Source of the DNA: a virus
Taxonomy: Duplodnaviria; Heunggongvirae; Uroviricota; Caudoviricetes
Virus record (IMG/VR): IMGVR_UViG_2740892035_000001
Coordinates: 1 to 26,810 of that record
Strand: one strand, 5' to 3'
DNA length: 26,810 nt
Positions 2,833 to 19,477 of this stretch are shown here, piece after piece (position 1 is the first letter of the stretch; every line of letters starts with the position of its first letter). The notes under the pieces were generated by a model. It was not told where the DNA came from. It was given only the letters and a program-made list of their open reading frames with translations, and did not search any database. The position numbers and the translations under genes were made by a program.

Positions 2833-3429
2833 TTAATTCGAGACTATTGTACTTCTTATACAAGCAACCACTTCAATATCAGAAAATGCACATTCAAAGC
2901 TATTCTCTGCTGTTGTAATTTTAATCATTCCTTTAGGAAGCCTTGTGATTTTTCGAATGGAATAGGTTCCGTCGATATTGATTAACCAGTTTCCATCAAG
3001 TACTTCAGAAAATTTTTGATCACAAATGTATGTGACGAGTCCATCCTGAACAACAATTGGTGATGAAAGGTTTGCAGGAAGAAATGATGAATCGAAGACA
3101 TATGAACCGTCTTCAATCATTTTGCCTGCGGCAAGGCGAAACTTAACAAGCTCTTCTGTAGCTGCTGTCAGCGAGCTTTGCTTAAGGCCTTGTCCGGTAG
3201 TTAACCATTTGAGGGAGGTTCCTGTTTCAAGAGCACATTGGATTATCCAGTCAGCAGGAAATGTATCCCGCAAATACCTGTTCGCTAGTGTGCTTTTTGA
3301 TACTTCCAAGTGATCAGCTAAAGCCTGTCGTGTCGTAAAGCCATAGGCTTCGACTAATCGCTCAATCGCAGCCTTACCACCTTTATTGGGATTTATTTTG
3401 ATCTCACTTGGGTACTTTGATGTTGACAT
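2833..3429 (-). CDS. cI: 186-type CI immunity repressor (198 aa)
   Basis: N-terminal HTH region (AYGFTTRQALADHLEVSKSTLANRYLRD...CALETGTSLKWLTTGQG) follows the 186 CI pattern as recalled; sits between int-side cargo and divergent early operon. Confidence 0.8.
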   Translation of the reverse strand: MSTSKYPSEIKINPNKGGKAAIERLVEAYGFTTRQALADHLEVSKSTLANRYLRDTFPADWIIQCALETGTSLKWLTTGQGLKQSSLTAATEELVKFRLAAGKMIEDGSYVFDSSFLPANLSSPIVVQDGLVTYICDQKFSEVLDGNWLINIDGTYSIRKITRLPKGMIKITTAENSFECAFSDIEVVACIRSTIVSN

Positions 3430-5352: not shown

Positions 5353-5579
5353 TGGCTGATGCAATGGATCTCGTACAGCAGCGCGTTGAAGAAGAACGCC
5401 AGCGCCATATCCGTGCAGCCCGTGCCAAATCACCGGGCGTGTCACGCGTACTTTGCATTGAATGTGAAGCGCCAATTCCGCCAGCACGACGCCGCGCCAT
5501 TCCGGGAGTGCAGCTTTGCATTACCTGTCAGGAAATCGCAGAACTGAAAGGCAAACATTACAACGGAGGTGCTGTATGA
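5352..5579 (+). CDS. TraR/DksA-family C4 zinc-finger protein (P2 orf82-like), 75 aa
   Basis: CIECEAPIPPARRRAIPGVQLCITCQE has four Cys in C-x2-C...C-x2-C arrangement typical of the TraR/DksA finger; its stop overlaps the next ATG (ATGA). Confidence 0.7.
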   Translation: MADAMDLVQQRVEEERQRHIRAARAKSPGVSRVLCIECEAPIPPARRRAIPGVQLCITCQEIAELKGKHYNGGAV

Positions 5580-6433
5580 GCACCATCCTGAAATGGGCGG
5601 GAAATAAAACCGCCATTATGCCAGAACTGAAAAAATACCTTCCTGCTGGCCCGCGACTGGTTGAACCTTTCGCGGGTTCCTGTGCTGTGATGATGGAAAC
5701 GGATTATCCCAGCTATCTGGTTGCGGATATTAATCCTGATTTAATCAACCTCTATAAAAAGGTTGCCGCTGATTGTGAATCGTTTATATCTCGCGCCAGA
5801 GTTTTATTTGAGATCGCAAACAGGGAGGTGGCTTATTACAACATAAGGCAGGAGTTTAACTGCTCAACTGAAATTACTGATTTCATGAAAGCGGTATATT
5901 TCCTGTATCTCAATCGTCACGGTTACCGTGGTTTATGTCGCTATAACAAGAGCGGGCATTTCAACATTCCCTACGGTAATTATAAAAATCCGTATTTCCC
6001 TGAAAAAGAACTTCGCACATTTGCAGAAAAAGCCCAGCGAGCAACGTTTATCTGCGCCAGCTTTGATGAAACGCTGGCGATGTTGAAGGCGGGAGATGTG
6101 GTGTATTGCGATCCGCCATATGACGGTACGTTTTCCGGCTATCACACTGATGGTTTCACTGAAGATGACCAGTATCACCTGGCATCCGTTCTTGAACATC
6201 GGTCATCAGAAGGACATCCGGTCATTGTTTCTAACAGTGACACATCCCTGATCCGTTCGCTGTATCGCAATTTTACTCACCACTATATCAAGGTAAAACG
6301 CAGCATCGGTGTGGCAGCTGGCGAGGGTAAATCAGCAACAGAAATCATTGCTGTTTCCGGGCCGCGCTGCTGGATGGGATTTGATTATTCGCGTGGCGTG
6401 GATAGTTCTGCCGTGTACGGAGTACGTGCATGA
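5576..6433 (+). CDS. N6-adenine DNA methyltransferase, Dam-like (orphan, no adjacent endonuclease), 285 aa
   Basis: Motif [10 protein letters not shown] and catalytic DPPY ([12 protein letters not shown]) present; GGAGG SD before ATG 5576. Confidence 0.85.
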
Positions 6434-8844
6434 GTCATGCCGATATGAACAACTGCTGCGGCTTTAACGAGGCTGCCGCAGCATTCTCATGGAACAGCCC
6501 GAAAAAGGCCATTAACCCTTATCTGGACCCGGCGGAAGTTGCGCCGGTTTCTACGCTTTCAAACCTGATCACTCTGTACGCTGCCGATAACGAGCAGGAA
6601 CAGTTGCGCCGCGAGGCACTGAGTGATCAGGTCTGGGAGCGTTATTTCTTTAATGAATCACGTGATCCTGTCCAGCGCGAAATGGAGCAGGATAAGCTCA
6701 TTAGCCGGGCAAAGCTGGCGCATGAGCAGCAGCGTTTTAATTCAGACATGGTCATTCTGGCGGACGTCAACGCCCAGCCTTCCCATATCAGCAAGCCGCT
6801 GATGCAACGTATTGAATACTTCAGCAGCCTGGGCAGGCCAAAGGCTTATTCCCGCTATTTACGTGAGACGATTAAGCCATGTCTGGAACGACTGGAGCAT
6901 GTACGCGACAGTCAGCTATCTGCATCTTTTCGCTTTATGGCAAGCCATGAAGGGCTGGACGGCCTGCTGATCCTGCCTGAAATGAGTCAGGATCAGGTGA
7001 AACGCCTGTCCACCCTGGTAGCTGCGCATATGAGTATGTGCCTTGATGCAGCTTGTGGTGATTTGTATGCCACCGATGACGTTAAGCCAGAAGAAATCCG
7101 CAAGACGTGGGAAAAGGTGGCAGCGGAAACCCTGCGTCTGGATATCATCCCACCTGCGTTTGAGCAACTCCGTCGGAAAAGAAACCGCCGTAAACCCGTG
7201 CCCTATGAACTCATTCCGGGTTCGCTGGCGCGTATGTTGTGCGCCGACTGGTGGTATCGGAAATTATGGAAGATGCGTTGCGAATGGCGGGAAGAGCAGT
7301 TGCGCGCTGTTTGCCTGGTCAGCAAAAAAGCATCTCCTTATGTCAGCTATGAAGCCGTGATGCATAAACGTGAGCAGCGCCGTAAGTCGCTGGAGTTTTT
7401 CCGTTCTCATGAACTGGTGAACGAAGACGGCGACACGCTGGACATGGAGGATGTGGTAAACGCCAGCAGCAGCAACCCTGCGCATCGCCGCAATGAGATG
7501 ATGGCCTGTGTTAAAGGTCTGGAGCTTATCGCGGAAATGCGCGGTGACTGCGCCGTTTTCTACACTATCACCTGTCCGTCGCGTTTCCATTCCACGCTAA
7601 ATAACGGCAGACCAAACCCGACCTGGACAAACGCGACGGTAAGACAAAGCAGCGATTATCTGGTCGGCATGTTTGCTGCATTTCGTAAGGCGATGCACAA
7701 AGCCGGGTTGCGCTGGTATGGCGTGCGGGTGGCTGAGCCGCATCATGATGGCACAGTTCACTGGCACCTGTTGTGTTTCATGCGCAAAAAAGACCGCCGT
7801 GCCATCACTGCATTACTGCGTAAGTTTGCCATCCGTGAAGACCGCGAGGAGCTGGGCAATAACACTGGGCCGCGCTTTAAGTCTGAGTTGATTAACCCGC
7901 GCAAAGGAACGCCGACAAGCTACATCGCGAAATATATCAGTAAGAACATTGACGGTCGTGGTCTGGCTGGCGAGATCAGCAAGGAAACGGGTAAATCTCT
8001 GCGTGATAACGCTGAATACGTGAATGCCTGGGCGTCTCTGCATCGTGTTCAGCAATTCCGCTTCTTTGGTATTCCGGGGCGTCAGGCTTACCGTGAACTT
8101 CGCTTGCTGGCTGGTCAGGCGGCAAGGCAACAGGGTGACAAAAAAGCAGGTGCGCCGGTACTGGATAACCCGCGTCTTGATGCCATTCTGGCTGCTGCTG
8201 ATGCTGGTTGTTTTGCCACCTACATCATGAAGCAGGGCGGCGTACTGGTTCCCCGTAAATATCACCTCATCAGAACCGCTTATGAAATCAACGAAGAGCC
8301 GACCGCCTATGGCGATCACGGCATTCGTATTTATGGCATCTGGTCACCCATTGCAGAGGGCAAGATCTGCACTCATGCAGTGAAGTGGAAAATGGTTCGT
8401 AAAGCCGTTGACGTTCAGGAGGCGGCAGCCGACCAGGGCGCTTGCGCCCCTTGGACTCGTGGCAATAACTGTCCCCTTGCTGAAAATTTGAACCAACAAG
8501 GGAAAGACAAATCAGCTGATGGGGATACCAGGACGGACATTACCCGCATGGATGACAAGGAGTTGCACGATTACCTGCACAGTATGAGCAAAAAAGAGCG
8601 CCGGGAACTGGCTGCAAGGTTACGCCTGGTGAAACCGAAACGGCGTAAAGACTACAAACAGCGAATTACAGACCATCAGCGACAGCAGCTCGTCTATGAA
8701 CTGAAGTCCAGAGGATTTGATGGCAGCGAGAAAGAGGTCGATTTACTCCTTCGCGGCGGCAGTATTCCGTCAGGAGCAGGCCTGCGTATCTTCTATCGGA
8801 ACCAGCGTTTGCAGGAAGATGATAAGTGGCGAAACCTGTATTAA
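6430..8844 (+). CDS. A: Replication initiation endonuclease, P2 gpA family (rolling-circle initiator), 804 aa
   Basis: Size and position as in P2 A; contains the HWHLL-type histidine motif (TVHWHLLCF) and downstream active-site Tyr context (YIAKYISKN); start overlaps Dam stop. Confidence 0.85.
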
Positions 8845-8938: not shown

Positions 8939-8954
8939 CTGTAAATATAAACAG
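8939..8954 (+). promoter_or_regulatory. LexA (SOS) box CTGTAAATATAAACAG, next to a TTTACA -35-like hexamer at 8914-8919
   Basis: Exact CTGT-N8-ACAG match read from sequence, ~45 nt upstream of the tum-like ORF. Confidence 0.7.
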
Positions 8955-9196: not shown

Positions 9197-9430
9197 ATGC
9201 GCATTGAAATAATGATCGATAAAGAGCAGAAGATTAGCCAGTCTACCCTGGATGCCCTTGAATCCGAGCTTTACCGCAATCTGCGCCCCCTGTATCCCAA
9301 AACGGTAATTCGTATCCGCAAAGGTAGCTCTAACGGTGTGGAACTGACCGGACTGCAACTGGACGAAGAAAGAAAACAAGTGCTGAAAATTATGCAGAAG
9401 GTGTGGGAAGACGACTGCTGGCTGCATTGA
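9197..9430 (+). CDS. DinI-family protein (Tum72/DinI-like), 77 aa
   Basis: MRIEIMIDKEQ...ESELYRNLRPLYP...KVWEDDCWLH follows DinI family hallmarks (MRIE start, acidic Trp-containing C-terminus); own GAGGTGA SD. Confidence 0.65.
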   Translation: MRIEIMIDKEQKISQSTLDALESELYRNLRPLYPKTVIRIRKGSSNGVELTGLQLDEERKQVLKIMQKVWEDDCWLH

Positions 9431-9566
9431 TAGGTTTCGTTTGTAATGAGTCATGTTTTTTGAGTCCGATAGTAGACAGCTAGAGGGATAAATGATTAAT
9501 AGATAGATTAAACATAGTGATGGGCGTAAAATCGCGCGCATTTTATTGGCAACGGATCTGAACTCA

Positions 9567-10460
9567 ATGGCGGATAAGACTCAATCAGTAAGTATTGTGT
9601 ATCAAGGCAAAGCTCTCGACGATCATAAGATGGATATTCTTTCGTTTGCGAAAAGTTTGCAGGGGCTAGGTGAGGCTATCTACTCTGCAAATGAGATTGT
9701 AAACGGAGGGCGAGACATTGAAGTTAACGTTGACGCTGAATTGATAGCCGGTTCCTTTGGGTTTGATATTGAGGTTGTACAACATCTAGCTAATGCTAAA
9801 GATGTTGTACAAATTTTAGGTTTGTCAGCCATTCCTTTAGCCGTTGGCGGTGCTACAGTTTTAGAGGTTCTCAAGAAGCTTAACGGGCGTAAGATCGACA
9901 TAGTCGAGAAAGCTAACGGTAGTGACAAAGTTAAGCTGAAAGTCGATGGTGAAGAGATTGTTTGCTCTGAAGATGTCGAAAAAATCGTTAATGCCCCAGA
10001 GATTCGTAAGGCTGTTGACGCGTTTGTCAGACAGCCTCTGTTACAAGATGGTATCGACAATTTTGTGGTAAAAAAATCGCGCACCTCTAAGAAAGAAATC
10101 CTCAAAATTCATAAAGATGAGGCAGAAGAGTTTAAGTCGCCAAAAGTTCTCTTTGAAACCAAAGAAGAAGTTGACGAATTTGAAACAACCGTGACATTCG
10201 TTTCGGCGCATACTGACAAAAAAAGTGGCTGGCGTGTTGAGTTTGGCGGTGAAAAGCGCAATGTCAGAATGGAAGATAATGAGTTCATCAAGCTTGTTAC
10301 TGGACCAGACGCCCCCAAAATTTTTGGCGAATTGTTTGCTGTGAAGATGAAGAAAATTGTGAAAGATTCCGGTGGCCAGGTAGACGAAAAGTTATCGATC
10401 ATCAAAGTGGGTCGACACTTTGCCGCCAAAGATAGAAAAATAAAACCTGATGCGGATTAA
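9567..10460 (+). CDS. Accessory cargo protein X, ~297 aa, soluble, no recognisable motif (track start 9546 is a TTG)
   Basis: Long open frame in an AT-rich insert; first gene of a tightly coupled three-gene operon. Confidence 0.6.
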   Translation: MADKTQSVSIVYQGKALDDHKMDILSFAKSLQGLGEAIYSANEIVNGGRDIEVNVDAELIAGSFGFDIEVVQHLANAKDVVQILGLSAIPLAVGGATVLEVLKKLNGRKIDIVEKANGSDKVKLKVDGEEIVCSEDVEKIVNAPEIRKAVDAFVRQPLLQDGIDNFVVKKSRTSKKEILKIHKDEAEEFKSPKVLFETKEEVDEFETTVTFVSAHTDKKSGWRVEFGGEKRNVRMEDNEFIKLVTGPDAPKIFGELFAVKMKKIVKDSGGQVDEKLSIIKVGRHFAAKDRKIKPDAD

Positions 10461-10462
10461 AA

Positions 10463-10726
10463 ATGTCTATAGATATTAGTGTGTTAGGATGGTTGGGGCT
10501 GCTTGTTGCAGCTCCAGCTATATTTATAGGTGCTAGAGTGGCTATACGTAGCCTGCTCGATCGAGTTATTGTCGAAACAAAAGTTTCTATCACTTATACT
10601 GATGCAAACAAAAATGTCTATAAAACAAATATTTATATAAACAATGATGATGAGTTAATAAAGCTCATCGATGATATAGCAGAGAAAAATAAGCGTGAGA
10701 GGAAGGAGTCAGCCTCTCATGCCTGA
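10463..10726 (+). CDS. Accessory small membrane protein Y, 87 aa, one N-terminal TM helix plus charged C-terminal tail
   Basis: ISVLGWLGLLVAAPAIFIGARVAI hydrophobic segment; starts 2 nt after X stop. Confidence 0.55.
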   Translation: MSIDISVLGWLGLLVAAPAIFIGARVAIRSLLDRVIVETKVSITYTDANKNVYKTNIYINNDDELIKLIDDIAEKNKRERKESASHA

Positions 10727-11135
10727 ACAAAAGAAAACAAGCGGTAAAGCAGTCGGTGTTACAGGTGGCGGCGGTGTAGGCCTTTTCCTAATAAAGCTGG
10801 CTAGCTTCATTACAGATCCAACATGGAAAGACCTTTACATTGCTTCAATACCGATGGTGTCAATTCTTTTAAGCGAAGTTTTTACTTTTGCATGGACGAT
10901 TTATGCTGTTGATCCGCAAGAAATCAAACTGAAAAGGCGGTTGAAGGCTCTGAAGAAGCAAGCCGAAGCAGTTTTAAATGCACCATCGTCCCCTGTTTCT
11001 CCAGAAATGCGAGAGAAAGCGCAGGCTCGTTACGACGTGATCTGTGGAATTGAAATGGGAATTTACCCCCTCTCAATTGTAAATACGCTAGATGGAAAAG
11101 TATCCCCCACAGCGCAAACGCCGGACGTTAAATAG
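10719..11135 (+). CDS. Accessory membrane protein Z, 138 aa, two TM helices then soluble C-terminus
   Basis: ATG 10719 with AGGAAGGAG SD; overlaps Y by 8 nt; hydrophobic segments GVGLFLIKLASFI and IASIPMVSILLSEVFTFAWTIYAV. Confidence 0.55.
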   Translation: MPEQKKTSGKAVGVTGGGGVGLFLIKLASFITDPTWKDLYIASIPMVSILLSEVFTFAWTIYAVDPQEIKLKRRLKALKKQAEAVLNAPSSPVSPEMREKAQARYDVICGIEMGIYPLSIVNTLDGKVSPTAQTPDVK

Positions 11136-11200
11136 CAGTTTCTACTTTGCATGACTATGCTGCATGAAATCGCATGATCGTTTGAGGATCGTTTTTGCAA

Positions 11201-11227
11201 AAGCCCGCCAGAACTGGCGGGCTTTTG
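11201..11227 (+). terminator. Rho-independent terminator (GCCCGCC stem, 6-nt loop, TTTT tail) ending the X-Y-Z operon
   Basis: AAAGCCCGCCAGAACTGGCGGGCTTTT read directly. Confidence 0.7.
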
Positions 11228-11271
11228 CGTAGAGCATGCATCTGCATGAAAACCACTACATAAAGCGGGCA

Positions 11272-11290
11272 GGCGTGGCGGGGATACGAG
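11272..11290. other. Candidate cos (cohesive end) core: GGCGTGGCGGGGATACGAG
   Basis: First 13 nt match the G-rich 5' part of the 19-nt P2/186 cohesive end as recalled; lies between the accessory operons on the Q-proximal side. Confidence 0.35.
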
Positions 11291-11377
11291 CGCGCGCAAT
11301 AGGGTTATGTACAATAAATTTTTGACGATCTTCGAGTGTTATTAGCTTGAGGCTGTCAGGGAAAATGAATACAATAA

Positions 11378-11442: not shown

Positions 11443-11550
11443 TTATCTTTTTGATTTCTTCTTCGTATCATCGTGATCGAATACTTGGCGGGTAGGCGGC
11501 TTGCTGGGTGGTGGCGGCGGCGGTAAATTAGATTTCTCATTTTTGCTCAT
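11443..11550 (-). CDS. Polyproline micro-ORF 1 (35 aa): MSKNEKSNLPPPPPPSKPPTRQVFDHDDTKKKSKR
   Basis: ATG-initiated; overlaps the stop of micro-ORF 2 by 14 nt; paralogous to micro-ORFs 2 and 3; below the ORF-track size cutoff. Confidence 0.45.
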   Translation of the reverse strand: MSKNEKSNLPPPPPPSKPPTRQVFDHDDTKKKSKR

Positions 11551-11671
11551 CTTTATTTTTCCTATTTTTTGGATCATTGCCATAGCTTTCTCTAACTAAC
11601 CGAGTGATTGGCGGTTTAGGTGGTGGTGGTGGTGGTGCTTCATTTTTTTTAGGATTTTTGTGTTCGGTCAT
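11537..11671 (-). CDS. Polyproline micro-ORF 2 (44 aa): MTEHKNPKKNEAPPPPPPKPPITRLVRESYGNDPKNRKNKDEQK
   Basis: In-frame ATG inside track ORF 11537-11725 (whose first M is a TTG); hexaproline tract; overlaps micro-ORF 3. Confidence 0.45.
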   Translation of the reverse strand: MTEHKNPKKNEAPPPPPPKPPITRLVRESYGNDPKNRKNKDEQK

Positions 11672-11786
11672 TTTTATCGTCCTTTCTGTCTCTTCGTAGT
11701 TGCCTTGCTTTTGAATCATCTTCAATAACGATCCTTCTTGCGGGTGGAGTAGGCCGAGGAGGTGGTGGCGGTAACGGTTTGGTCAT
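11649..11786 (-). CDS. Polyproline micro-ORF 3 (45 aa): MTKPLPPPPPRPTPPARRIVIEDDSKARQLRRDRKDDKNDRTQKS
   Basis: ATG overlaps the TAA stop of the upstream membrane protein gene (TAATG); translated by hand from the reverse complement. Confidence 0.45.
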   Translation of the reverse strand: MTKPLPPPPPRPTPPARRIVIEDDSKARQLRRDRKDDKNDRTQKS

Positions 11787-12436
11787 TAAGTTCTCCTGAC
11801 ATTTTCAATAGGTATTATCAAATAGTTAGGGGCGTTATTTTTCCGCGGTGATGCTGCATCTAAATCAGCTAAAAGAAATATGACTACTGCTGCGATAATT
11901 GGAATCCATGACCAGACAAGATACTTTGTTGACTCAAATAGTTTACTGGAACGTTCCTCATTGATATTACTGTTCCAGCTAGCACACTCTCTGATTTCTT
12001 GATGAATAAACTCCCAAAGTTTATTATCAGGGTTATAACTTTCATCGTATGTAAGTCCATTGTCATCGCAATATTTTTTATATTTCACTTCGTAACTAAT
12101 CAGATCTATGTGATAATCATGCAATGCTTTAGGTGCAGGGCAATACTTAAATTCATTTCCCCATATGACTTGTTTCAACAGAATTGATGATACAAGAACT
12201 AAGCCAAATGAAATTGCGGTACATAAAAATACTAGGCAAGCTAGCCTTGGGTGGGATTCATAAGATGTGTTTTTGGCGAGATAAGTGAGTATAGTTGCGG
12301 TAATGACAACTAATCCGAATTCGGCTTGAGCGCGAGTATGTATCTTGTCTTTATTCTCAATTTCTGAGAAATAAAGTTTTTCGTAAAATTCTAATGCTTT
12401 ATCCTTTTTCATTTTTAGATTCAGTGTGATGTCCAT
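11786..12436 (-). CDS. Accessory integral membrane protein, 216 aa, ~3 TM helices, no recognisable motif
   Basis: Hydrophobic segments FGLVVITATILTYLA, LACLVFLCTAISFGLVLVSSILL and YLVWSWIPIIAAVVIFLLA; AT-rich; between portal gene and cos-like motif. Confidence 0.6.
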   Translation of the reverse strand: MDITLNLKMKKDKALEFYEKLYFSEIENKDKIHTRAQAEFGLVVITATILTYLAKNTSYESHPRLACLVFLCTAISFGLVLVSSILLKQVIWGNEFKYCPAPKALHDYHIDLISYEVKYKKYCDDNGLTYDESYNPDNKLWEFIHQEIRECASWNSNINEERSSKLFESTKYLVWSWIPIIAAVVIFLLADLDAASPRKNNAPNYLIIPIENVRRT

Positions 12437-12496: not shown

Positions 12497-13534
12497 CTAA
12501 TCTAGCGATAATTCGTAATTTGTGAACCCTATCGCGTTTTTATCCAGCCATTTATTAAGCTCCTCAAAGCGTCTCTGAAGCGGAATAAGTTCATTACGAA
12601 CGAATACGCGGCTGGCCTTCTCCACATCCCCAAATCCCCCAACATTATTAGGCATAATCCCCATCATTTGCGGTGGCACACGATGCGCCGCCATCATGTC
12701 ATCCCGGCTCACGTTCTTGATGTTTAGAAACTCATCCTTCGCCGCGACTTCTGACAGAGGAATGATCTGAAGCCCATCCTTTTTGCCGTTAGGCGAGTAC
12801 ATAAACAGGTTGCGGAAGTTACCCGGTCCTTTGGCGCTTTTCATCGCATTGCGGAGGTTGTTCACATCCTCCTGGTTCTGCGCGGCATCGGTCATGTACA
12901 TGATGAAGCCTGCATGACTACCGTTAATGTAATACTTCCGGCGGAACAGCGTGGCGGACTCGTTGAGCAAAGCGGATGGGATGGCAGAAAGATAGCCGGG
13001 CAGGCCGTAGATCTCCTGATTAATATCCGGTTCCATCAGATGAAAAATGCTGCCTTTCGTGAACTGATACGGCTGGGTTGTCATACCGTATTGCACAAAC
13101 CAGTAGGTATCCAGGTCTAACCCGCGTCGGGTATATTTTGCCAGAGCAGGCTCAAGGGCGATAACTTCACCGAAGCGGTTCGTGCGTTTCTCCAGATAGG
13201 CGTTACCAAATACCAGATAGTCCTGCACAAAACGTGAAAAAGCCTGCTGGCTGAGCAGCGGGTGAGGGATGTAGGTACTGGTCAGTATGTTGCATTTCAC
13301 CGCAATTGGTGAACTGTGATGCACGGCAGCGCGGAAGGTGCGCGCCAGTCCGTCAAAGCTTACTGGCGGCTCATACCAGCGATCTGTCTGTACGCATTCC
13401 ACATAGTCCAGCAGTTCTCGGCGGTCCAGAACAGGAACGGGATCGCCGAAGCTGAATGCTTCGGCTGTAGTTTGACTTTTAAGCTGGATCTGTTTCGTCG
13501 CCGAAGCGCGGTTCTTCTTACTCTTTCCCATCAA
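12497..13534 (-). CDS. Q: Portal protein (P2 gpQ family), 345 aa
   Basis: Size and position as P2 Q, overlapping the terminase gene by 4 nt in the divergent Q-P operon. Confidence 0.9.
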   Translation of the reverse strand: MMGKSKKNRASATKQIQLKSQTTAEAFSFGDPVPVLDRRELLDYVECVQTDRWYEPPVSFDGLARTFRAAVHHSSPIAVKCNILTSTYIPHPLLSQQAFSRFVQDYLVFGNAYLEKRTNRFGEVIALEPALAKYTRRGLDLDTYWFVQYGMTTQPYQFTKGSIFHLMEPDINQEIYGLPGYLSAIPSALLNESATLFRRKYYINGSHAGFIMYMTDAAQNQEDVNNLRNAMKSAKGPGNFRNLFMYSPNGKKDGLQIIPLSEVAAKDEFLNIKNVSRDDMMAAHRVPPQMMGIMPNNVGGFGDVEKASRVFVRNELIPLQRRFEELNKWLDKNAIGFTNYELSLD

Positions 13535-18768: not shown

Positions 18769-18984
18769 ATGACGCTTGAGCGAATCAGCGCCTTTATCAC
18801 GTATTGCATCGCCGTCGTGCTGGCCTGGCTGGGCGATTTGTCCATCAAGGATGCCTCAACGCTGGGCGGCCTGATGATTGGTGTACTGATGCTGGCTATC
18901 AACTGGTACTACAAACACAAAGCCTACCAGCTTCTGCGCGACGGGCAGATCTCGCGGGAGGACTATGAATCCATCAATCGTTAA
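18769..18984 (+). CDS. Holin, 71 aa, two TM helices (class II/pinholin-like)
   Basis: Two hydrophobic segments and charged C-terminus; immediately upstream of the endolysin and overlapping it by 20 nt. Confidence 0.75.
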   Translation: MTLERISAFITYCIAVVLAWLGDLSIKDASTLGGLMIGVLMLAINWYYKHKAYQLLRDGQISREDYESINR

Positions 18985-19477
18985 ACGCTGCCTTGTCGGG
19001 GCCGTGCTGGCTATTGCTGCCACGCTGCCGGGTTTTCAGCAGCTTCACACCTCCGTGGAGGGGCTGAAACTGATTGCTGATTACGAAGGCTGTCGTCTGC
19101 AGCCGTATCAGTGTAGCGCGGGTGTCTGGACCGACGGCATTGGTAATACGTCGGGCGTCATTCCCGGCAAAACCATTACGGAGCGACAGGCAGCAGAAGG
19201 GCTGATCTCCAACGTGCTGCGTGTGGAGCGGGCGCTGGAAAGGTGTGTGAAGCAACAGCCGCCGCAGAAGGTGTATGACGCTGCGGTGTCGTTTGCCTTC
19301 AACGTGGGAACGGGCAATGCCTGCAGTTCCACACTGGTGAAATTACTCAATCAGCGGCGCTGGGCGGATGCGTGCCGACAGTTGCCGCGCTGGGTTTATG
19401 TGAAAGGTGTTTTTAATCAGGGGCTGGATAACCGCCGTGCGCGGGAGATGGCCTGGTGCTTACAGGGAGCAAACTGA
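18965..19477 (+). CDS. SAR endolysin, T4-lysozyme-fold muramidase of P1 Lyz type, 170 aa
   Basis: N-terminal Cys-containing SAR-like segment (RCLVGAVLAIAATLPG) and catalytic block EGCRLQPYQCSAGVWTDGIGNT that follows P1 Lyz (EGCRRDPYMCPAGVWTDGIGNT) as recalled. Confidence 0.85.
   Translation: MNPSIVKRCLVGAVLAIAATLPGFQQLHTSVEGLKLIADYEGCRLQPYQCSAGVWTDGIGNTSGVIPGKTITERQAAEGLISNVLRVERALERCVKQQPPQKVYDAAVSFAFNVGTGNACSSTLVKLLNQRRWADACRQLPRWVYVKGVFNQGLDNRRAREMAWCLQGAN

Follow-up and report, generated by a model that had tools for sequence, protein, structure and literature searches.

We analysed a stretch of 26,810 nucleotides (hereafter, the window) from a virus of the class Caudoviricetes (IMG/VR record IMGVR_UViG_2740892035_000001), which, judged by its gene content, is a prophage of the P2 family, 186 type. 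An earlier note, made from the letters of this DNA, had drawn attention to three consecutive genes, which we call A, B, and C (Table 1). We conclude that A-B-C is a mobile “moron” cassette of temperate phages, and its relatives are found preferentially at sites in which temperate phages carry exclusion or defence genes that are expressed in the lysogen. Our favoured reading, to which we would give about an even chance, is that A-B-C is a lysogen-expressed anti-phage module acting by exclusion or abortive infection, with A as its core and B/C as a membrane partner. This reading is based upon the location of the cassette in the P2 hotspot, its presence in two catalogues of candidates (as System #37 and PDC-S42), its mobility, the repressor-adjacent position of its relatives, its sporadic spread, and its dispensability.

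Although the earlier note implied that the cassette was novel, both the cassette and the A family are already known from published catalogues of candidates. All three full sequences appear verbatim as “System #37” of the P2 hotspot, with 104 occurrences (Rousset et al., 2022, Table S5B; PMC9122126), and the three protein accessions, WP_000764102, WP_000020716, and WP_001115044, recur in Table S5A of the same study. The entry for System #37 lists no Pfam domain and carries the note “2 TM in protein 2, 1 TM in protein 3” (TM, transmembrane). Given that the proteins, the hotspot, and the TM annotation are identical, System #37 and the cassette are the same entity. The second catalogue entry, PDC-S42, is one of 145 phage defence candidates (PDC) drawn from genes that lie inside BREX, DISARM, or type I restriction-modification (RM) loci (Payne et al., 2024, bioRxiv 10.1101/2024.01.29.577857). 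PDC-S42 is a single-gene candidate, whereas A is here strictly linked to two small TM genes, and the three-gene form is a distinct clade that lies outside the PADLOC definition of PDC-S42. According to the searches that we made, it has not been described elsewhere that the trio is conserved and moves as a unit, or that the A family is split into clades with and without B/C, the latter of which usually has a repressor-adjacent slot; the modelled domains of A, among them an OB fold, and the topology predicted for the two small proteins are likewise additions.

Conservation and mobility of the A-B-C cassette

The cassette is bordered by gpA and a DinI/tum-like gene on one side, and by the portal gene on the other, and these flanks confirm the earlier placement in the gpA-portal hotspot of P2. 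Several systems from this hotspot have been validated (Rousset et al., 2022; PMC9122126), and in a 2026 survey, defence systems, either complete or putative, were present in 81% of P2-like elements, often in the gpA-portal hotspot (PMC13586616). The cassette was also said to be AT-rich, and its G + C (GC) content is indeed 0.40–0.42 over positions 9501–11000, compared with 0.52–0.60 in the flanking phage genes. The exact cassette is rare: among complete E. coli genomes, 7–8 of 5,426 have it, as do 104 of 18,150 P2 loci (~0.6%). Such sporadic occurrence, together with the low GC content, is typical of accessory cargo that is swapped. Since related P2-like phages have other cargo in the same slot, and since the prophage has its own holin and lysozyme, the cassette is dispensable for the phage life cycle and is not needed for lysis or morphogenesis.

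The ratio of nonsynonymous to synonymous substitution rates (dN/dS), estimated from six pairs of diverged copies, was 0.02–0.06 for A, 0.07–0.16 for B, and 0.07–0.15 for C (two of the 18 estimates were undefined, as dS was saturated). Based on these low values, we concluded that A, B, and C are genuine coding genes under purifying selection and not chance open reading frames (ORFs). An in-frame TTG at position 9546 is an alternative start of gene A. Genes A and B are separated by 2 nt, and the end of B runs 8 nt into C (ATGCCTGA), which has a strong Shine-Dalgarno sequence (AGGAAGGAG) 5′ of it, at 10700–10708. The tight coupling of the three genes described earlier is a property of one unit that is conserved across phages: an overlap of 4, 8, or 11 nt between B and C was kept in all 14 variants examined, with an A-B spacer of 2 to 38 nt. 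The conserved overlap implies that B and C would be translationally coupled, probably at a fixed stoichiometry.

That the three genes form a co-inherited set, as had been proposed, is borne out by the loci of the trio clade. Using a hidden Markov model (HMM) made from the B alignment, we found the B gene directly after A in 34 of 34 trio-clade loci (L001–L011, L014–L035), and an HMM made from the C alignment likewise placed C in the same 34 loci; the C profile search found no copy outside this clade. Every readable locus of the clade has A followed by a gene for an ~80-residue protein with one TM segment and then a gene for an ~120–155-residue TM protein. Twelve further viral loci, which were found with two diverged subfamily alignments and in which A is ~27–47% identical to the query alignments, also have a gene for an ~80-residue one-TM protein and a gene for an ~130-residue TM protein, joined by tight junctions, and loci L014 and L038 share the trio layout.

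The surroundings of the trio differ from phage to phage. In P2-like phages, A occurs at 100, 94–97, 64, and 61% identity, and always between gpA and portal. In lambdoid prophages of Proteus, the trio is situated directly 3′ of a CI-type (HTH + Peptidase_S24) repressor gene; in a Klebsiella siphophage, it is found between SSB/primase and tail genes, beside an Imm_superinfect gene; in a siphophage of Proteus, it separates a tail-chaperone-like gene from the tape-measure gene; and in a Mu-like phage, it lies between Mu F/G-like genes and the protease (I) gene. One copy, in Providencia stuartii NCTC11800 (L018, 5001–5868), has A split into two by a frameshift, with the adjacent B and C intact. This copy looks like it is decaying, and it shows that an intact A is not required for B and C to be tolerated.

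A second clade of A homologues, ~305–317 residues long, has no B/C partners in 80 viral loci. A CI-type repressor gene was detected immediately upstream, and on the same strand, in at least 40 of the 76 such loci with upstream sequence, which is a lower bound, as detection relied on just five reference repressors. In Rac-like prophages of E. coli (L137–L139, 3501–4421; ~306–317 residues), the A homologue is located between a racR-like repressor gene and kilR/recE, which is the place of sieB on the K-12 Rac map. This slot corresponds to the position of rexAB in lambda and of bstA in BTP1. Lambda rexAB, Rac and P22 sieB, and BTP1 bstA are all exclusion genes that are expressed in the lysogen. 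The interval between the Mu G-like gene and I holds eight loci without B/C as well as three trio loci. Separately, one homologue without B/C lies beside a hok/gef toxin gene at a prophage edge. Given that a large clade of A homologues exists without B or C, we regard A as the core, which probably does more than sense and feed a B/C effector. The earlier picture of a cytoplasmic protein paired with a membrane effector was therefore too narrow.

The region between the DinI/tum-like gene and A presumably contains the cassette's own promoter, and a consensus scan of this region revealed no convincing σ70 site on the + strand. Further upstream, at 8939–8954, there is a perfect LexA box (CTGTaaatataaACAG) that precedes the small ORF and the DinI/tum-like gene, and which matches the SOS-controlled tum promoter of phage 186. 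No terminator-like site was found between the stop codon of the DinI/tum-like gene (position 9430) and gene A, and SOS-driven read-through from the LexA-box promoter into the cassette may thus be possible.

At the other end, the hairpin 3′ of gene C is likely to be a bidirectional intrinsic terminator that closes the operon. Earlier, the operon had been described as ending at a clean terminator; a strong hairpin is indeed present, but it does not belong to the cassette. The ~150 bp segment that holds it (11148–11300) recurs, at 90–95% identity and irrespective of the cargo, in 1,275 of the 5,426 complete E. coli genomes, and P2-like phages from Klebsiella, Salmonella, Yersinia, and Erwinia have it as well. 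As the segment is conserved whatever the cargo, we assign the hairpin to the cos-proximal backbone of the phage. The segment marks a fixed cos-proximal border between two variable cargo slots.

Proteins A, B, and C and their closest known systems

Protein A aligns end to end with PDC-S42 of PADLOC (E = 8.8e-44; residues 5–288 of 297 on profile positions 3–293 of 302), and all 36 of the 36 relatives of A that we sampled match the same profile. It also matches NCBIfam NF053583 (“LAPAL motif-containing putative phage structural protein”) with 191.7 bits, where the cutoff is 60, and phrog_3243, a family of unknown function. A profile search of 1.84 billion cluster representatives returned 3,613 proteins at E ≤ 1e-3, of which 552 reached E ≤ 1e-30; this corresponds to a family of ~3,600 clusters at 50% identity. 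The best 150 of these proteins are nearly all 250–350 residues long and were matched over essentially their full length. A scan of contigs with one alignment of A (A1) gave only four loci. In the clade without B/C, LAPAL is found literally and without variation, as part of an N-terminal helix (L28 A29 P30 A31 L32), and the motif is absent from the query A, in which the aligned residues are F27-A-K-S-L31. The first ~35–40 residues of A (Y-D-G…H…L..L.aL motif) resemble the start of Pfam DUF7946, a match that is sub-threshold in 18 of 36 relatives and reaches 1.4e-5 at best. We found no homologous family for the cassette proteins in Pfam or the PDB, where a profile search with the A alignment returned nothing at E ≤ 1, and fold searches gave no match to a capsid, tail, or scaffold protein.

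We made a model of A with AlphaFold2 from a 24-sequence alignment (mean predicted local distance difference test score [pLDDT] 80.5; predicted template modelling score [pTM] 0.61). The model has three domains, with a Gly/Ala-rich hydrophobic helix-loop-helix, or hairpin, between the first and the second (Table 1). The last domain is an OB fold, as it forms a five-stranded barrel with a helix between strands b3 and b4. Its sequence identity to the single-strand-binding OB-fold domains of RPA, SSB, PriB, and RMI1 is 4–15%, and its net charge is 0. In addition to nucleic acids, OB folds also bind proteins and sugars. Residues ~78–105, which form the hairpin, are the most hydrophobic stretch of A in every clade of the family, and because of this conserved Gly/Ala-rich segment, we no longer regard A as the plain soluble protein that it was thought to be. 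Four residues, Y12, W222, D237, and F240, are invariant across the family, and G62-S63-F64, G85, P157, and V281 are nearly so, yet A has no recognisable catalytic signature. A GxSxG-type hydrolase motif at G62-S63-F64-G65 was considered and rejected; the motif reads G-S-F-G, and in the model it is a β-hairpin with no nucleophile elbow.

The two small proteins, B and C, had been described as carrying one and two TM segments, respectively, and this agrees both with hydropathy and with the Phobius counts of one for B and two for C (Rousset et al., 2022, Table S5B; PMC9122126). B has one strong N-terminal TM segment (~residues 6–28; hydropathy 2.15) with a conserved APAI motif, followed by a soluble domain of ~55 residues. 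As its short N-terminus is acidic and Arg residues come just after the TM segment, the positive-inside rule predicts that the N-terminus is outside and the C-terminus cytoplasmic. By hydropathy, C has a strong hydrophobic segment at residues 39–64 and a weaker, Gly-rich segment at residues 11–31. It contains an invariant GGGGxG segment and a hydrophobic hairpin (~11–31 and 34–63), which is followed by a strongly basic amphipathic helix (residues 66–86) and a helical C-terminal domain; the AlphaFold2 model of C is all-helical (pLDDT 68). Both ends of C are predicted to be cytoplasmic, as the N-terminus (+2) and the C-terminal tail (+3) are basic and the short loop is acidic. Almost no part of B or C is thus predicted to be periplasmic. 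Neither protein has a usable match in Pfam, PHROGs, NCBIfam, or PADLOC, and no lysis, holin, spanin, or antiholin family was matched in the first three of these.

The earlier note recognised no motif in the three proteins, and its suggested profile check with Pfam and PADLOC gave a similar outcome: A falls into families of candidates or of unknown function only, and no protein of the trio has a recognisable enzymatic or effector domain. It had also named homology to a characterised non-defence function as an outcome that would speak against its proposal, and no such homologue was found by sequence and fold searches of Pfam, PHROGs, NCBIfam, and the PDB.

In its general layout, the cassette resembles RexA/RexB of lambda, which also combine a cytoplasmic protein of ~280–300 residues with a small polytopic membrane partner, and which are transcribed together with cI in the lysogen. 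The rexAB slot directly 3′ of the repressor gene is, moreover, the slot of the A relatives in the Proteus trio loci and in the repressor-adjacent loci without B/C. However, RexB is one protein with four TM segments, whereas the cassette encodes two small membrane proteins with one and approximately two, and rexAB lies beside cI, whereas the cassette is ~6 kb from the CI gene, on the other strand, and in the P2 hotspot. Homology to RexAB was rejected, since hhalign gave a probability of 0.2% both for A with RexA and for C with RexB, and there was no RexA chain among the PDB sequence or fold matches; B does not match RexB either.

Closer in location is AC1 (“2TM + 1TM + TIR”), a system of the P2 hotspot whose activity against lambda, LF82_P8, and P2 has been validated (Rousset et al., 2022; PMC9122126). 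AC1 shares with the cassette the hotspot and the combination of an ~300-residue cytoplasmic protein with one-TM and two-TM proteins, but it has a TIR domain (none was found in A with Pfam or PADLOC), its gene order is reversed, and its small proteins have 126 and 185 residues, as opposed to 138 and 87 here. Identity with AC1 was rejected, because the three protein pairs have no significant similarity by hhalign, blastp, or hmmsearch. Another validated P2 system, 3HP (hp+hp+hp, from E. coli E1114), consists of three soluble proteins of ~340, 350, and 230 residues (Rousset et al., 2022; PMC9122126), and it was likewise rejected, as neither blastp nor hmmsearch returned anything significant, and size and TM content differ. 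The “HP + 4TMs” system of the P4 hotspot (pFR87) also pairs an ~300-residue protein with a TM protein in a satellite/phage hotspot. Here, there is weak similarity that covers only the first ~35–40 residues of A (hhalign E = 0.016), and the A family HMM hits protein 1 of pFR87 with E = 1.7e-4 in a set of eight sequences, which is below the family thresholds and leaves the rest of the protein unaligned.

Candidate anti-phage function and its rivals

Our analysis shows the structure of the genes, their selection, synteny, and mobility, their genomic contexts, and the folds predicted for their products; expression of the cassette in the lysogen, the topology of B and C, an interaction between A and B/C, the nature of the trigger, and any anti-phage effect are inferred. 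In the mechanism that we propose, the cassette would act at the inner face of the cytoplasmic membrane. B and C, produced in a fixed ratio by translational coupling, would form a small inner-membrane complex with its soluble parts facing the cytoplasm, and this complex would dock or regulate A. The OB-fold and N-terminal domains of A might detect a cue of infection, be it a nucleic acid or a phage protein, and once triggered, the complex would compromise the membrane or block an early step of the incoming phage. The candidate active elements are the Gly/Ala-rich hairpin of A, the glycine-rich hairpin of C, or both. In such a scheme, A would be the core that senses and, at least in part, executes, and B/C would serve as an inner-membrane platform.

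Several observations weigh against this proposal. System #37 is absent both from the list of validated systems (Table S2A) and from that of additionally tested ones (Table S2B), and the pFR87 system is among those that were additionally tested and not validated (Rousset et al., 2022, Table S2B; PMC9122126). The PDC set consists of explicitly unvalidated candidates (Payne et al., 2024, bioRxiv 10.1101/2024.01.29.577857), and literature searches by family names and WP accessions retrieved no paper on the A family and no phenotype. No enzymatic domain or known effector domain can be recognised in A, B, or C. As the OB domain of A is not basic, binding of nucleic acid by this domain is only a guess. 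B and C cannot be the sole effector, since A occurs alone in many phages, and the minimal periplasmic exposure predicted for them argues against a classical block of entry from outside. Lastly, some copies of A reside inside late, structural operons, and the curators at NCBI named the family a “putative phage structural protein”.

The name of NF053583, and the score of A against it, raise the possibility that A is an accessory of the virion, of morphogenesis, or of lysis. Some copies are in fact co-oriented with head or tail genes in late operons, for example between Mu F/G-like genes and protease I, or between tail-chaperone-like and tape-measure genes. However, at least 40 of the 76 loci without B/C, as well as the Proteus trio copies, are beside a repressor gene and far from structural genes, only ~0.6% of the P2 hotspot loci have the cassette, and close P2-like relatives do without it. 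These repressor-adjacent and hotspot contexts argue against a structural role. The fold searches and the F-A-K-S-L in place of LAPAL in the query also speak against it, and a complete holin and lysozyme set in the window argues against a part in lysis. We therefore regard an accessory role of this kind as very improbable.

A different objection is that the evidence shows only mobile, sporadic, lysogeny-associated cargo, which would also fit a lysogenic-conversion or fitness moron without a defence function, whose membrane complex alters host physiology (stress tolerance, envelope, colonisation, or induction timing). Non-defence cargo is also known from P2 hotspots, including cytolethal distending toxin and partition systems (Rousset et al., 2022; PMC9122126), and the LexA box by the tum operon would permit SOS-linked expression. 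Against this, no signal peptide, adhesin, toxin, or transporter domain was found, and the A family was also retrieved, independently, from genes that lie within BREX or DISARM loci or within type I RM loci. In addition, the repressor-adjacent slot is a classical place for exclusion genes. We consider such a moron unlikely. Less probable still, in our opinion, is that the trio is an addiction module of the toxin-antitoxin type, in which either A or B/C is toxic and the other neutralises it, or else a counter-defence or host-takeover module, in which the OB-fold protein shields phage DNA or blocks a host defence. A toxin/regulator pair would be expected to show tight translational coupling, as B and C do, and to be strictly co-inherited, as A is with B/C throughout the trio clade; small TM proteins are often toxic, and a homologue of A without B/C does adjoin the hok/gef gene mentioned above. 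Yet A is stable alone in a large clade, the one profile search, made with C, revealed no copy outside the trio clade, and the P. stuartii locus, with a frameshifted A next to intact B and C, is hard to square with A as an essential antitoxin. As for counter-defence, anti-defence genes were rare in P2 in the 2026 survey of P2 and P4, with only two types, in 28 elements (PMC13586616).

Returning to the anti-phage reading, one can go a step further and propose that A-B-C and the repressor-adjacent homologues of A form a widespread and so far uncharacterised family of lysogen-expressed exclusion modules, with ~3,600 clusters at 50% identity, that is unrelated to RexAB, SieB, BstA, TIR, CBASS, and retron effectors. 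A, with its three domains, OB fold, and buried Gly/Ala-rich hairpin, would be both the sensor and the membrane-active executor, and one clade would have recruited coupled miniature membrane proteins as a docking or regulatory platform. We offer this broader proposal tentatively, and would place it appreciably below an even chance.

Should the cassette prove to defend its host, an orphan of the catalogues (System #37, PDC-S42) would become a new defence family that is not homologous to any known sensor or effector. As A occurs naturally both alone and with B/C, the two forms would allow a comparison that could separate the sensing parts from those that kill or exclude. Moreover, since relatives without B/C occupy the repressor-adjacent slot of many enterobacterial prophages, including Rac-like prophages of E. 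coli, the family could be a common and overlooked contributor to prophage-mediated immunity. At present, the cassette is a well-supported candidate and a reasonable target for testing, and neither a discovery nor a surprise to specialists.

The surrounding prophage

The features of the window, together with the domains of protein A, are listed in Table 1.

Table 1. Positions of genes and signals in the window, and of the modelled domains in protein A
Feature	Position	Strand	Remarks
Integrase	1–1053	−	
PD-Lambda-1 gene	1136–2812	−	
CI repressor	2833–3429	−	186-type
CII and Fil	between CI repressor and Dam-type methylase in gene order		
Dam-type adenine methyltransferase	5516–6433		D12 class; Pfam 2.7e-75; PADLOC orphan methyltransferase 1.6e-110
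gpA replication endonuclease	6430–8844		Pfam Phage_GPA 8.7e-128
Small ORF and DinI/tum-like gene	ends at 9430		DinI/tum-like match 8.4e-21
Intergenic region 5′ of A	9431–9566	+	136 nt; AT-rich
Cassette A-B-C	9567–11135	+	
Gene A	9567–10460	+	ATG start; 297 residues; RefSeq WP_000764102 (ATG form)
Gene B	10463–10726	+	87 residues
Gene C	10719–11135	+	138 residues
Conserved cos-proximal segment	11148–11300		
Hairpin, likely terminator	11197–11228		GC-rich; flanked by A-tract and T-tract; RNA fold −32.6 kcal/mol, z = −6.0
216-residue membrane protein gene	11786–12436	−	matches phrog_36961
Portal gene	12497–13534	−	
Terminase, capsid, lysis, and tail genes	beyond portal gene		
Holin	18769–18984		
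Lysozyme	18965–19477		
A, N-terminal β-α-β-β domain	residues 1–72		AlphaFold2 model
A, Gly/Ala-rich hydrophobic helix-loop-helix (hairpin)	residues 78–105		AlphaFold2 model
A, middle α/β domain	residues 112–190		AlphaFold2 model
A, C-terminal OB fold	residues 199–285		AlphaFold2 model; canonical order b1-b2-b3-helix-b4-b5

A second, known defence gene of the same prophage is situated in another hotspot, between the integrase and CI genes. Its product of 558 residues matches PD-Lambda-1 in PADLOC (2.4e-120), and DUF4041 and T5orf172/MUG113 in Pfam. The Dam-type methyltransferase gene is directly 5′ of gpA, and overlaps the start of gpA by 4 nt.

On the portal side of cos, the 216-residue protein has two strong TM segments. 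Its gene is followed by three overlapping mini-ORFs of ~45, 44, and 35 residues, apparently coupled (region 11443–12436, − strand), each of which has a PPPPPP..PP.R motif, and the first of which begins at a TAATG stop/start overlap; a strong terminator (11409–11378) comes after them. Gene callers mark only one ORF of ~60 residues in this region, and tandem polyproline mini-genes of this kind are unusual. The 216-residue gene is common beside the portal gene of P2-like phages, with varied cargo across cos, and because it pairs with different cargo on the other side of cos, we consider it to be independent of A-B-C. In E. coli PEC148 (L001, 5981–6526), the A-B-C cassette is identical, but a SieB-family superinfection-exclusion gene replaces the 216-residue gene, and the two slots that flank cos are therefore filled independently.

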